A stretch of 64,000 nt of DNA from Eledone cirrhosa (lineage: Eukaryota). The translations under genes and the position numbers were made by a program. Of this stretch, positions 596-61,702 are shown piece by piece (position 1 is the stretch's first letter; each line of letters starts with the position of its first letter). Where the stretch lies: NCBI GenBank assembly GCA_964016885.1, contig OZ024745.1, forward strand, positions 69,626,001-69,690,000, written 5' to 3'. The notes under the pieces are model-generated. The model saw only the letters and a list, made by a program, of their open reading frames with translations, was not told where the DNA came from and did not search any database.

Positions 596-761
596 TATAA
601 GGAAGGAATTGTGGTAAAGAACCAGATGGACCATAACGCACCAAAGTACTCAATACTTAGGGTAGTAGAGTGGGTAATAAACTTTCGACGGCTATTTCTG
701 GACAGTCCAGAAATAGCCGTCGAAACGGCTTGAGCTCTGCCGTCGGGGTCATACTTGTTCC
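596..761. mobile_element. Small fold-back PLE pLTR remnant in (TA)n with 3' half of a hammerhead; related copy at 27700-27790
   Basis: Perfect 21-bp inverted repeat 683-703/705-725; GTC-GAAA-CGGC-loop-GCCG-TC-GGGGTC; shares ggaccataacg and gccgtcggggtc with 27700-27790. Confidence 0.6.
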
Positions 762-1278
762 TATATATATATATATATATATATATATATATACATATAT
801 ATATATATATATACGTATGTACAAAGACACGTACATGCATGCACGCATACACATAAATTTATCTATATAAAGAATCGGGAACCTTTTCTTTATGTGGTTC
901 AATTCCTGAGATTATCCACATATTTCTGTGACAATATCCACCGCCATTTTACTATCCATAGCTAATATTATCCCTTACTGATTTTAACACAGGCTATAAC
1001 ATTATTAGCTACTGTTCCAACAGTACTTGACACCACTAAATATTTTTCTATAACGCAGTACACTATACTATCCCACCCGCCATCTCTCCCTCTCTCTCTC
1101 TCTCTCTTTCCCTTTATATCTATTTCTCGCTCTCTCAACATTGCCACGTGGGTGGTTGCCACCAAAGATAATTAAATTCTTCCTAGTCTTTCTATTAAGA
1201 AAACAAAACTAATAATATTATGATAGGATTAGAGTTTCTACTTATACATTCAGCACACTTTCTATAATTCTCTATCAA

Positions 1279-1592
1279 ATGTTGTTGTTGTTGTTGTTGT
1301 TGTTGTTGTTGTTGTTGTTGTTGTTGTTGTTGTTCTTCTTCTTCTTCTTCTTCTTCTTCTTCTTCTTCTTCTTCTTCTTCTTCTTCTTTTTCTTCTTCTT
1401 CTTCTTCTTCTTCTTCTTTTTCTTCTTCTTCTTCTGTTTCTTCTTCTTCTTCTTCTTCTTCTTCTTCTTCATCGTCGCCACCACTACAATCATCATCATC
1501 ATCATCATCATCGTCACCACTTCCACCACCACAACAACCCCACCATCATCATCATCATCATCATCATCATTTTGTTATTATTATTATTATTA
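1279..1592. repeat. Compound trinucleotide microsatellite (GTT)n(CTT)n(CAT)n(TAT)n
   Basis: Direct inspection. Confidence 0.97.
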
Positions 1593-1593
1593 A

Positions 1594-2255
1594 GGTGGAT
1601 TGGCAGTATCGGTAGAGGGTCGGACGCCATGCTTTCCAGCATAGTTACGTCCCTTTACGATCTGAGTTCAAATCCCGCCGAGGTTGACTTTGCCTTTCAT
1701 CCTTACGGGGTCGATAAAATAAAGTACCAGTAATGCACTGGGTAATTGTTGGCCTTGTGCCTAAAGTAGAAATAATAATAATAATTATTATTATTAGCAG
1801 TAACAGGGGTGGTAGATTGGCAGTATCGGTAGAGGGTCGGACGTCATGCTTTGACGCATAGAGTTACGGCCCTTTCTATTCTGAGTTCAAATCCCGCTGA
1901 GGTCAACTTTGCCTTTCATCCCTACGGTGTCGATGAAATAAAGTACCAGTAATGTACTGTGTAATTGCTGGCCTTGTGCCAAAAGTAGAAACAATTATAA
2001 TAATAATAATAATAATAATAATTATTATTATTATTATTGGATTGGCAGGGGCAGCTGATTGGCAGTATCGGTAGAGCGTCGGGAATATGCGTTGTGATAT
2101 AGAGTTACGGCCCTTTAGGTTCTACATTCAAATCCCGCCGAGGTTAGCTTTGCCTTTCATCCTTACGGGGTCAATAAAATAAAGTACCAGTAATGCACTG
2201 AGATCGATTTAATCAACTCCCCCACCCAAATTGCTGGCCTTGTGCCTATAATAGA
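1594..2255 (+). mobile_element. Three head-to-tail copies of a ~180-bp tRNA-derived SINE (about 1594-1772, 1808-1990, 2048-2255)
   Basis: A-box-like TGGCAGTATCGGTAGAG, B-box GAGTTCAAATCC, central GCCTTTCATCCTTACGGGGTCGATAAAATAAAGTACCAG (resembles Meta/MESC-type SINE core), tail GGCCTTGTGCCTAAAGTAGAAA(TAA)n. Confidence 0.9.
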
Positions 2256-58489: not shown

Positions 58490-60250
58490 TGAAGGAAATA
58501 TTTACATCCACTTGACTTTCTTTGCTATATATGCGGTAGTTTTACAGTACCAGTGAATTTGTGAAGAGAGCATATTTGGATTACTTTAAGCTTAAATTTG
58601 GTAATCAGAATAAATCGATGGCGCCTTACAATGTATGTAAACCACGTGTCTAAATTCTACGCCATTGGAGAAAGGGGACAAGCAAACAACTAGCATTTGA
58701 CATACCTATGGTATGACGGGAGCTAAAAAAACCCATGCAGAATATTGCTACTGTTGTCTCACAAACCTCTTGTTATAGCAAGAAAACTCGACAGAAAATA
58801 AGTTACCCTAATTCGGATTCAGTAATTCATCCAGTGCTTCATCAGTACCCGTTTACTGGATGATGAAAGTGATATGTGTTTCAGACGAAAATCATCAATA
58901 TAACAGTGATACAGACTTTGTAGATTTAACAACCAAGGAACGTGAAAACTTCAACCAGGCAGAACTGAATAATTTAGTGAGAGACTTAAGCCTGCCAAAA
59001 GTGTTATCAGAACTCTTAGCTTCTAGACTTAAAGAAAAGAATATACCGCGGAAAGGGGCAAATGTAACGTTTTATGGGAACAGGGAAAAATATATCTTGG
59101 CATTCTTTAAAACTGAAAAAAGATTTTGTTTAATGTTATGACGTGGCGAGACTTTTACAAGCGATGGGTGTTCTACAATATGATCCTCCTGAATGGAGAC
59201 GCTTTATGGATAGTACAAAGAAGAGTCTAAAATGTGTATTACACCATAATTGTTTCTACTTTTGGCACAAGGCCAGCAATTACCCAGTGCATTACTGGTA
59301 CTTTATTTTATCGACCCCGTTAGTTAAGCTCGGCGGGATTTGAATTCAGAATGGCAAGGGCCGTAACTCTATGCGTCAAAGCATGGCGTCCGACCCACTA
59401 CCGATACTGCCCTCCATAATAGAAACTTGTTAGGTGCAATTCCTATTGGCGAATCTGTGCACTTAGAAGAGAAGCATGAACACATAAAAACTGTATTAGA
59501 TTTACTCAAGTATGATGAACACAAATAGGACATATGTGTGGATATGAAAATGGTCAACGTTTTACTTGGCTAATAAGGACGGTATGCAAAATATCCATCT
59601 TTCATGTGTTTATGGTTGTAGCCGAGGAAAAGAAAAACATTGGGAACAGAAACACTGGGCAGTTAGAAAAAGTGTGATTGTTGAGAAGAAAATCATACAC
59701 CAACCACTTGTTGGGCGAAAGAAAATAATCTTCCAACCCCTTCATATTAAACTACAACTAATGAAGCAGTTTGTTAAAGCTCTTAATGTAGAGGGTGTCT
59801 GTTTCAAATTCATATATACAACATTTCTTCGACAAAGTGTGATATTCTTGACGGGACACAAATCAGAAAGTTAATGAAATGCGACACCTTCTTGATCTCG
59901 ATGACTGACGTAGAGAAAAGAGCATAGAATTAAATTGTCTCAGTTGTGAATGGATTTGGGGGCAGCGAAAATGCTACAAATTACGGTGAGAGACATTGCT
60001 TGATAGCTTTAATCTTTAAGGCTGCAACATGAGCATAAGGATTCATTTCCTCAAGAGCCATCTCGATGAATTTCCTGCTAAACCTGGAGACTTGAGCAAT
60101 GTGCATGGCAAGCGCTTGCATCAAAATATGAAGGTTATGGAGGAGATATATCCAGGTAGATGATGGCAAACTACTGTTGGAGAATTGAAAGAGGCTGTGT
60201 AGATATGAAACACTCCAGGCGCTCTCGTAAGACACAGTTTGTTCCATTAA
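58490..60250 (+). pseudogene. Decayed Chapaev3-like (CMC) DNA transposase
   Basis: FCYICG..VKRAYLDYFKLKFGNQNK..APYNVC, FNQAELNNLVRDLSLPK..ELLASRLKEKN, WRRFMDSTKKSLKCVLHHN, PLHIKLQLMKQFVKAL; many stops and frameshifts; family name from recall. Confidence 0.75.
59251..59413 (-). mobile_element. SINE inserted into the transposase relic
   Basis: 1594 family; 7-bp target duplication CCATAAT at 59244-59250 and 59414-59420. Confidence 0.92.
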
Positions 60251-60621
60251 TATGTTGGTTAGTGTACGATTGTTTTTGCTTTACTCATTTTATTTGAGAA
60301 TTAATAAGATGTATTTAATAAAAAGTGGTGCTAACTTATATATCATCTATCATATCAGATTTCATTGACATTAAAACTTATTTTTGCAAGCTATAAATTT
60401 AGTAATCCACCCTGAGTAAATTATATTATTCATACAGTGAATAATAAAATAAGGATGTGCTTTAGAATGAAATATTTTTTGTTTCAACAAACTTACTCTC
60501 AAAATGTTCATGAATACTTTTTATCAAACTTTTTCTTAAACATTCCCCAAGCATTTTCTCTCTCTCACTCTCTCTCTCTCCCCCTCTCTCTCTCTCTCTC
60601 TATATATATATATATATATAT

Positions 60622-61078
60622 AAAGAAAAAGGGATGAAATCGAAAATGCAACTGAAGTCTTATTTTTTTTTTAAATATATATATTTATTTGGTTCCTTTA
60701 CCGGTTTCGCAGTTCTTCTGCTTTTCAAAAGGTGAGTGGAGATGGAGGGTCTGCTGGCGCGAAATTTATTATAATTATTGACAAACCAATCAAATTACTT
60801 CTCGAAAAACCTGGTTTTCGAGCCAGTTTTTCCATATAAAACAAGTAACATTTAGAGACCAACCAGATGTGAGAAAAACCACAGACACTCCATCTCAACT
60901 CACCTTTTGAAAAGCAGAAGAACTTCGAAACCGGTAAAGGAACCAAATAAATATATATATTTTTAAAAAAAATAAGACTCCAGTTGCATTTTCGATTTCA
61001 TCCCTTTTTCTTTATACTTCCACTCGTGTAGGACACCTCGGTTATTTTTCATTTTGTAAAAAAAACCTCACTTTCTAA
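60622..61078 (+). mobile_element. Family H3 fold-back element with two U3-A8 hammerheads (60695-60732 minus; 60903-60940 plus)
   Basis: 60622-60752 is the reverse complement of about 60882-61012; flanked by (TA)n. Confidence 0.85.
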
Positions 61079-61163
61079 TATATATATATATATATATATA
61101 TATATATATATATATATATATATATATATATATATATATATATATATATATATATATATATAT

Positions 61164-61702
61164 CTAAGGCGGGTAAAATTCCCGAGATCCATGGACGAGT
61201 TCTCTCCAGCGGTCTCTGTCCCTCATCATAGCTGCCATATCCTGCATCTCCAACAGACCACTGTCTGTCCTTAGGGCATCAACATATGTTAACCTTGGTC
61301 TTCCTCTTCTAGTGTGTCCATGTAGGGGCTCCCAAAGGAGCACTGAGTGCAATGTCAACTCTGGATGTCGGTGAGCATGTCCAGCCAACCTCAGTCTTCT
61401 CTGTGTCACTTTTGAGCTGACTTTTGGGATGCTCCCATACAACTCTGAGCTTTTCATCCTCAGTGTATACTGATTGATACGGAAGATGATGTGGTTGAGA
61501 GGAAGAGCAGGGCCTGGGCGGCGTGTCACAGCTTGAGATCGGTGTGGAGGTCGGACCTTCGTAGAGACCTGAAGATCCGCCTCTTCATTGCTGTAGTGGA
61601 GTCTGTGCTGCTGTATGGGTCTGAGACTTGGACACTGACCAAGAGACTCACTCAGATGGTGGATGGGTGCTACACAAGAATGCTGAGGATGGCTCTGAAC
61701 AT
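61164..61702 (-). mobile_element. RTE-type LINE 3' fragment with precise 5' inversion, in (TA)n
   Basis: + strand: SRAWAACHSLRSVW..VESVLLYGSETWTLT..RMLRMALNI; - strand: INQYTL..QRRLRLAGH..RRGRPRLTYVD..DRDRWR. Confidence 0.9.

Follow-up and report, generated by a model that had tools for sequence, protein, structure and literature searches.

The fold-back insertions that border (TA)n tracts in a 64,000-nucleotide stretch of the Eledone cirrhosa genome (contig OZ024745.1, positions 69,626,001 to 69,690,000; the whole stretch is hereafter designated the window) are very probably ends of Penelope-like elements (PLEs) that home to TA and become inverted, likely by their own copying, and the single inverted RTE-type LINE among them likely arose by twin priming steered by the TA target. 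A previous sequence-only reading of the window had ascribed the whole set to the target sequence, and its interpretation is partly supported. According to the explanation preferred here, the PLE endonuclease would cleave a TA tract on both strands, each cut end would prime cDNA at one or other of two fixed positions close to the end of the RNA, and the two truncated cDNAs would be joined head to head into a palindrome with the 3' ends outward; of the two outer ends observed in PLE insertions, one carries a tail of 33–100 bp and the other has none. In the RTE LINE, the (ATAG)n tail would pair with the first nick, and the second nick would anneal within the RNA, preferring A/U-alternating spots on TA targets, a bias that is observed at the junctions; the cDNAs would then be copied from different parts of the RNA, and therefore little hairpin would be formed. 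Counting against this explanation are two families without a linked ORF (F5 and F14) and a few copies tailed at both ends.

Fold-back insertions and their families

Fold-backs were confirmed at the sites listed in the sequence-only reading, with arms 92–100% identical, except for the RTE-type LINE at 61164-61702 (reverse strand; strands are given where assigned), which consists of the terminal 315 bp and the preceding 226 bp in inverted orientation. No complementary arms were found in it (best self-match, 23 bp at 87%), and instead of a fold-back it represents a 5' inversion in which 2 nt overlap. The listed sites comprise nine repeat families and one RTE LINE; the families are indeed unrelated at the DNA level, but most fall in one superfamily. 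RT and/or GIY-YIG reading frames were located, either in the window itself or in longer copies of the family, for seven of the nine (F1, F2, F4, F6, F7, F8, and F9; for F7, the endonuclease part only), which, judging from the predicted RT with C-terminal GIY-YIG, are probably Penelope-like elements. The PLE families also show a pLTR in partial tandem or inverted together with a one-ended tail. Pfam RVT_1 matched F8 above and F6 below the cut-off, Pfam GIY-YIG matched F2 below the cut-off, and the remaining families were assigned by mutual BLASTP and motifs.

Four PLE families (F1, F2, F4, and F7) carry motifs of the Hydra clade as described in sections of Craig et al. 2021 (PMC8557442), namely, the CxCX5C linker in F2, F7, F4, and some copies of F1 (absent from copy L387), and RWK and DKT in F4, the only Hydra-type family with its N-terminal region at hand. 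The F1 end (596-761) has an internally deleted, tailed arm (596-682) followed by an inverted untailed arm, with a TA tract at 762 and a hairpin at 683-725 (arms 683-703/705-725; 21 bp, 100% identity). The F2 element (9989-14460, reverse strand), flanked by TA on both sides, contains a pLTR, an inverted pLTR (13751-14374), an 86-bp tail, and frames for a 5'-truncated RT (12971-13753) and GIY-YIG (11625-12071); its arms (9989-10502/13751-14374; 489 bp, 97%) are interrupted on the right by a SINE (14026-14161). The folded-back F4 end (19613-19909) has a right-hand 72-bp tail, arms at 19613-19718/19728-19833 (106 bp, 98%), and hammerhead-like cores at 19705 (reverse) and 19741 (forward). In the F7 element (27830-29656, reverse strand), a 100-bp tail, a pLTR tandem, a GIY-YIG fragment (28758-29321), and an inverted pLTR (29300-29656) were recognized, with arms at 27930-28219/29367-29656 (289 bp, 94.5%) that can be extended to 29300. 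Another F7 copy (42158-43358, reverse strand) has a GIY-YIG frame (42500-43117) and an inverted pLTR (43156-43358; arms 42244-42446/43156-43358, 203 bp, 95.6%), and a short one (32396-32724) shows a 40-bp inverted end (32685-32724) of the insertion 32396-32720.

The F6 PLE (23573-26799, forward strand) encodes a 725-aa RT/GIY-YIG frame (24079-26253) and has a 41-bp tail, an inverted pLTR (23573-23779), and a second inverted piece (23781-23832); its arms (23573-23779/26552-26758) span 207 bp at 97.6%. Folded-back PLE ends of F8 (35214-35450; 33-bp tail; arms 35248-35344/35354-35450, 97 bp, 99%) and F9 (60620-61077; 62-bp tail; arms 60620-60757/60879-61015, 137 bp, 95.6%) share a CX2-5CxxC linker with F11, a PLE with RT/GIY-YIG frames (50010-52140, forward strand) that adjoins TA and is not inverted. 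As this linker is common to both clades, the three may belong to Neptune or Nematis; F8 additionally has GxKF and DKG.

F5 and F14 have a PLE-like layout and no linked ORF, and they behave like PLE ends although they are not classed as members. The F5 insertion at 22728-23239 is a 260-bp tandem unit in partial tandem with an inverted end (arms 22947-23014/23172-23239; 68 bp, 98.5%), in which no ORF was found; insertions at 30 loci consisted of the 260-bp unit alone, with no autonomous partner found there. Its tRNA-like part scored 26.5 bits in Rfam against a cut-off of 29. No RNA record was listed for 22728-23239, a result neutral as to expression. A folded-back F5 copy with TA on both sides lies at 40919-41217 (arms 40960-41066/41114-41220; 107 bp, 92%). 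F14 (17962-18249) is TA-anchored, with two fixed ends and a 76-bp tail, and the ORF found near one copy is not joined to the F14 arm. The hairpin at 18156-18249 (arms 18156-18195/18210-18249; 40 bp, 92.5%) is the beginning of the F14 inverted arm, ended by a tandem repeat; F3, a 507-bp tandem repeat of 2.6 units (18254-19550, forward strand), terminates at TA without inversion. Hammerhead core-like motifs with a stem were found in F2, F4, and F6 only, and canonical hammerheads were not found in F3 or F5. No hammerhead appeared among the 150 of 152 Rfam rows listed, which otherwise gave hairpin-type miRNA matches below their cut-offs.

That (TA)n borders all these sites is true of the insertions but not of the arms. 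Typically, one arm is flush with TA and the other lies 35–100 bp off, behind the tail; the hairpin at 18156-18249 is 195 bp away from the nearest TA. Moreover, two fold-backs are counter-examples lacking a nearby TA tract. One (36664-36738) adjoins a decayed Hydra-type endonuclease fragment, with no TA tract within 680 bp. The other is an F5 copy (44394-44720) of the same family as the fold-back at 40918; this copy entered AT-rich DNA other than (TA)n, where 13 bp of target are apparently duplicated, and its fold-back (44450-44720; arms 127 bp, 98%) is more than 1 kb from the nearest TA. Two small palindromes in the window, at 427-526 and 32685-32928, are centred on a TA tract.

Frequency and end asymmetry of PLE inversions

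About half of the unselected PLE copies (57/125) were inverted, and their outer ends begin at two differing, family-fixed positions. The inverted arm begins at -72/-73 in 5/8 inverted copies of F4 and at -32 to -36 in 11/16 of F8, and F9, F1, and F14 likewise have a family-fixed start. Among 60 inverted copies, the outer ends were typeable in 45, and in 44 of these one end was tailed and the other untailed (p = 1e-12 versus 0.5); a tail on both ends occurred in 1/45, and likewise in L284, L320, and L221/L222. This asymmetry points to the element, not the symmetric target, as the cause. The palindromes, previously regarded as a product of TA, come from PLE-type families with asymmetric ends.

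In a hand census of the window, ~15 of ~27 repeat insertions abutting TA were inverted, that is, about half rather than the majority claimed before; the count includes an inverted F1 copy whose arms do not overlap (27690-27790) and a two-ended inverted insertion between TA tracts (41323-41596), both overlooked earlier. Two automated tables gave higher inversion in TA than at non-TA sites (58/134 versus 4/53, p = 8e-7; 50/98 versus 7/27, p = 0.028), but they are discounted because an inverted copy has by construction two target-primed ends and because most 'non-TA' rows are fragments or, on inspection, TA-flanked. By hand reading of the list, only ~6 PLE copies are truly non-TA, 3 of them inverted. 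Since PLEs seldom occur outside TA, an inside/outside comparison has almost no power for them; classing the copies by TA on both sides was circular and was set aside.

The RTE LINE and the influence of TA targets

The LINE at 61164-61702, which we take to be probably of RTE type from the earlier reading and from motifs, belongs to a family with a 3' tail of (ATAG)n, a full length of 3.3 kb, and a Pfam RVT_1 score of 45 bits. The family copies resemble the products of L1 twin priming in that the inverted upstream piece begins by the breakpoint with a short overlap or deletion, the outer and inner junctions show microhomology, and the target is duplicated at non-TA sites, and they differ in that an invertebrate RTE-type LINE is concerned, with 23/63 unselected copies inverted (18–37% across samples). 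Passages of PMC4245944 describe inversions in human cells as almost confined to human L1. The outer ends are mostly no more than ~65 nt away from the breakpoint; 7/36 lie at least 400 nt upstream, and one copy starts at the 3' end. Inheritance from an inverted master copy was suggested by 13 other copies matching the whole inverted query, but it was rejected because the junctions of fourteen similarly inverted copies all differ, indicating separate events. The RTE case is likely L1-style twin priming, which TA steers without clearly raising its frequency. The proposed check of the junctions bore out this steering: with a TA flank, the second primer was drawn to A/T-alternating spots in 11/21 copies versus a background of 9.6% (p = 9e-7), and outside TA the site was TA-biased in 1/14.

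A first comparison of RTE inversion gave 26/68 in TA versus 6/44 (p = 0.005), and classing by the 5' flank alone gave 22/50 versus 14/76 (p = 0.0025; stratified, p = 0.02). The latter was replaced with a design in which copies were selected solely by their 3' side, because truncated copies often lose 5' target bases and end up as 'non-TA'. Among tail-matched copies, 8/44 were inverted in TA versus 13/64 in the outside-selected set (p = 1.0) and 5/38 strictly non-TA copies (p = 0.56), and only 1/30 SINEs in TA was inverted; the inside/outside comparison suggested by the sequence-only reading thus revealed no general TA effect. Pooling with the matched set gave 34/109 versus 6/44 (p = 0.026; p = 0.11 if two mini-inversions are counted), and a ~2–3-fold RTE excess in TA is left open by the pooled samples (p = 0.03–0.11). 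Opposite-strand SINE neighbours were as few in TA (1/20) as outside (4/84), and a TA-anchored tandem repeat had opposite-strand pieces at only 2/39 scored places. SINEs lie mostly outside TA in the window, as had been noted, but genome-wide 2,798 exact SINE ends abut (TA)n.

An alternative compatible with the preferred explanation is that inversion is a PLE trait whose rate, like that of RTE twin priming, is at most about doubled by the symmetric TA target, through the same cut site on both strands and an easily melted primer. It is possible, although we lean against it: all odds ratios versus strictly non-TA copies exceed 1 (1.2–3.9), and target-overhang melting is linked to inversion in passages of PMC4245944, whereas the ratio versus the whole outside-selected set is 0.8–1.0, and two TA samples (21/53 and 8/44) differ as much as TA and non-TA.

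The original model, in which self-complementary TA allows both nicked strands to prime so that any retroelement tends to a palindrome, appears improbable. The pooled RTE excess, the TA-biased second-primer sites, and the true tail-to-tail double priming found, rarely, in or beside TA (RTE L031 and L016; SINE L360 and L408) accord with it, and both target strands evidently do prime in inverted copies. Speaking against systematic inversion of unrelated families in this niche are the tail-matched RTE and the SINE counts, an arm overlap of at least 30 bp in only 1/36 inverted RTE copies, and the asymmetric PLE ends. If the rule held, one microsatellite would set insertion structure across retroelement classes, which the tests here do not show.

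Origin after insertion, by replication fold-back or by recombination between TA tracts, is very unlikely. TA tracts are unstable, and the small palindromes at 427-526 and 32685-32928 would suit such an origin; a mirror arm, however, would be expected to copy the end as it is, and the actual arm is untailed with a family-fixed inner start, and the same tracts house unfolded SINEs and, for the most part, unfolded RTEs. Least credible is that TA tracts gave rise to the palindromes as artefacts of the assembly or the library, since the window arms diverge by up to 8%, arm offsets are constant within a family, both copies of a duplicated segment (L184/L193) share a fold-back, and 15 F5 left-arm-to-right-arm joints at varied positions, probably fold-backs of other F5 copies, occur among the matches listed in read-derived contigs of one sample, even though the neighbouring fold-backs L357 and L359 have arms 99.9–100% identical and no apex-spanning piece was found among contigs and RAD reads at 35214-35446 and 44250-44900, a result neutral for those loci.

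Known elements and a possible link to double-stranded RNA

Published traits of PLEs already include inverted copies, one-sided tails, and the targeting of (TA)n. The sections of Craig et al. 2021 (PMC8557442) on EN+ PLEs (Hydra, Neptune, and Naiad) describe an inverted 5'-truncated copy, partial tandems, a one-ended tail, and (TA)n targets, as here, with tails of 30–40 bp compared with 33–100 bp in our families; they contain no inversion frequency or tail/no-tail count for the two ends, and the supplements may list these families. Parts of Frangieh et al. 2024 (PMC11167929) report that PAc, a Poseidon element of Anolis carolinensis, cleaves AT-rich DNA on both strands in vitro and extends both, and that its RT uses two internal start sites, which delimit the tail, without target homology. 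PAc resembles the present elements in the two starts and in the two-strand cutting proposed for them, but belongs to another clade, cuts ATT instead of (TA)n, and has no reported start-site difference between its strands, in contrast to the differing ends observed here. Non-LTR retrozymes, described in part of bioRxiv 10.64898/2026.07.22.740005 as non-autonomous PLE derivatives, are similar to F3 and F5 in their short, ORF-less tandem units; both families differ in that a canonical hammerhead was not found, and F5 also in its tRNA-like part and frequent inversions. No statement on inversion raised by TA targets or on octopus RTE 5' inversion was found in open-access main texts, nor in the portions of the octopus repeat papers PMC13282606 and PMC9115989.

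Local inverted repeats occur at 12 sites across 150 kb adjoining the window, roughly 80 per Mb. In Xenopus, a palindromic Harbinger repeat is behind long-dsRNA potential and hyper-editing (PMC5625713). By analogy, PLE fold-backs might be the palindromic repeat behind the hyper-editing and the exceptional potential for long dsRNA that have been reported in octopus, one ribonucleoprotein using a different RNA start for each cut strand and TA modestly boosting RTE twin priming, although we consider this combination speculative and rather unlikely. The RTE 5' inversions extend twin priming beyond mammalian L1, and the asymmetry of the two ends places a sharp constraint on the unsolved mechanism of PLE integration. 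If transcribed, the dense, near-perfect PLE hairpins are a candidate source of abundant editing substrates in octopuses.

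Inverted insertions of the window

The window, placed on contig 5 of the 3.0-Gb genome, has a GC content of 34% and many (TA)n tracts (hereafter TA). Self-comparison and arm-by-arm alignment revealed inverted arms of 21–489 bp with 92–100% identity at the sites where a sequence-only reading had claimed them, except at the copy of RTE, a LINE (61164–61702), which has no complementary arms. The same reading had all sites bordered by TA; usually, the first arm is indeed flush with TA, but the second stops 35–100 bp short of the next tract, and the fold-backs at 44450–44720 and 36664–36738 are distant from TA. 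Its statement that most insertions are inverted comes down to about half, since a hand census of the window counts about 15 inverted copies among the roughly 27 repeat insertions that abut TA, and it had overlooked inverted insertions at 27690–27790 and 41323–41596. The 150 kb of neighboring sequence contain 12 local inverted repeats whose arms measure at least 34 bp, and the arm-plus-tail layout recurs at several more sites.

A 37-bp inverted repeat at 427–526 has a (TA)12 tract at its center. At 32685–32955, two ends of family F7 are opposed across a single TA tract; this palindrome is a chance product of separate F7 insertions, and insertion stacking in TA tracts is a further origin of inverted repeats. 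A SINE (14026–14161) interrupts an arm of the F2 fold-back, which is therefore older than that insertion. Another SINE (59246–59411) interrupts a decayed coding-like stretch (58860–60240), possibly, judging from its sequence, a DNA transposase remnant.

Penelope-like elements and the pairing of their ends

Frames for RT and/or GIY-YIG of the Penelope-like element (PLE) type occur within the window copies of the fold-back families F2, F6, and F7 and in longer genomic copies of F9, F4, F8, and F1. F1, F2, F4, and F7 are mutually related and all have a CxCX5C linker, with RWK and DKT motifs also present in F4, features given as Hydra-clade marks in the relevant part of a published account (PMC8557442). 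F8 and F9 have a CX2-5CxxC linker. Between the RT and the endonuclease of F2, a frame at 12099–12488 has a motif similar to that of Ty3/gypsy RNase H. Very long inverted repeats were also seen elsewhere, at L344:1708–5825 (a 710-aa PLE frame on both strands) and L359:72–3203 (1.4-kb arms, 99.9% identity).

In a 920-kb survey not chosen for PLEs (window, 150-kb neighbors, and RTE flanks), 57 of 125 PLE copies with an intact 3' terminus were inverted; among the best-matching young copies, some long ones of which extend beyond the sequence analyzed, the counts were 8/30 for F4 and 16/30 for F8. Both ends were typeable in 45 of 60 inverted copies, and 44 of these 45 combined a start bearing a tail (an extra 33–100 bp on one outer end) with an untailed start at the other, a pairing expected in at most half under independent start choice (p = 1e-12). 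Published work, in the part concerned, describes a PLE protein that cuts and extends both DNA strands; it initiates from two internal positions in the RNA, and these delimit the tail (PMC11167929). Two automated tables spoke against an element-intrinsic origin of inversion and for a TA effect, but the first (58/134 in TA versus 4/53 elsewhere) was set aside for its circular classification, and most "non-TA" rows of the second (50/98 versus 7/27) had TA when inspected. Only about six truly non-TA copies were left in the latter, three of them inverted, so that the inside/outside comparison for PLEs has no power.

Families F5 and F14 show the same two-ended layout, and no ORF linked to either was found. 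F5, a 260-bp tandem unit (22916–23175, 40919–41217, and 44394–44720), was inverted in 20 of 28 distinct best-matching insertions. Its insertion pattern is that of PLE ends, and its tRNA-like segment (23083–23153, minus strand) scores 26.5 bits against Rfam tRNA, under the cut-off of 29; F5 is possibly a Pol III-driven, non-autonomous PLE passenger. The 507-bp tandem family F3 (18254–19550) is abundant (4,892 genomic candidates), forms arrays that exceed a dozen units (G000:C2:299868539–299875862), and has only a partial hammerhead-like core.

RTE and SINE copies inside and outside TA

According to the sequence-only reading, the self-complementarity of (TA)n lets both nicked strands prime and thereby systematically yields palindromes in unrelated families. 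The window RTE copy consists of the last 315 bp and, in flipped orientation, the preceding 226 bp, with a 2-nt overlap at each of its two joints. The genome has 8,690 exact RTE 3' ends; from 66 of the first 100 listed, removal of two segmental duplicates and one unresolved copy left 63, of which 23 were inverted (21/53 in TA). In a second set, 64 copies (from 97 hits) chosen because a non-TA base follows the tail, 13/64 were inverted, as were 5/38 of the strictly non-TA copies. The first pooled comparison (26/68 in TA versus 6/44, p = 0.005) weakened on stratification (OR 2.6, p = 0.12) and on classing by 3' flank alone (OR 1.5, p = 0.42). Tail-matched copies in TA (44 of 508 hits) were inverted in 8/44, not significantly different from the outside-selected set (p = 1.0) or from its strictly non-TA copies (p = 0.56), although pooling all sets gave 34/109 versus 6/44 (p = 0.026, or 0.11 counting two mini-inversions). 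RTE inversion is thus a minority outcome in TA that also occurs outside it; any excess in TA is at most a few-fold and unproven. Given the gap between the two TA samples (21/53 and 8/44), twin priming may depend on the type of tail or on the age of the subfamily. The RTE frequency is notable because inversions came almost exclusively from human L1 in the part of a published account bearing on them (PMC4245944). In three full-length copies (L131, L136, and L119), one at a non-TA site, the entire 5' part (1.2–2.8 kb) is flipped.

The junctions agree in part with the proposed priming. Where the 5' flank is TA, 11/21 inverted RTE pieces start with at least two alternating A/T bases, versus 9.6% of RTE positions (p = 9e-7), 1/14 without such a flank, and 5/24 truncated copies; twin priming predicts pairing of this kind. 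Palindromic arms are nevertheless rare: overlap reached at least 30 bp in 1/36 RTE inversions and 10–29 bp in 6/36, the other 29 having smaller overlap or a deletion.

SINEs, placed by the sequence-only reading in (TAA)n or ordinary sites without inversion, have 2,798 exact ends leading into (TA)n in the genome, with one inverted among the first 30. In the 920-kb survey, 1/20 TA-adjacent copies was palindromic, and 4/84 outside TA had an opposed neighbor, mostly from separate insertions. In two RTE copies (L031:362–1527 and L016:651–965), which represent double priming at the tail, the inverted arm starts right at the 3' end and has a tail of its own. These and the rare SINE palindromes, with both ends tail-primed, fit the proposed model, but at only about 1–5%. 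With RTE and SINE so behaving, TA may have a modest effect but is not supported as a general cause of inversion.

Reality of the fold-backs and their potential for double-stranded RNA

None of the read-derived pieces compared with the window fold-backs (at 35214–35446 and 44250–44900) crosses an apex. Divergent arms, family-fixed offsets, one fold-back present in duplicated form, and varied arm-to-arm joints among read-derived contigs argue against an artefact. The window features are real and mostly of known kind. Octopus bimaculoides has exceptional long-dsRNA potential and hyper-editing according to a published account that, in the part concerned, did not analyze repeats (PMC5625713). Predicted folding, as raw values without shuffle control, was −0.55 to −0.81 kcal/mol per base for the PLE hairpins and −0.34 for RTE; if transcribed, the PLE hairpins would fold strongly.
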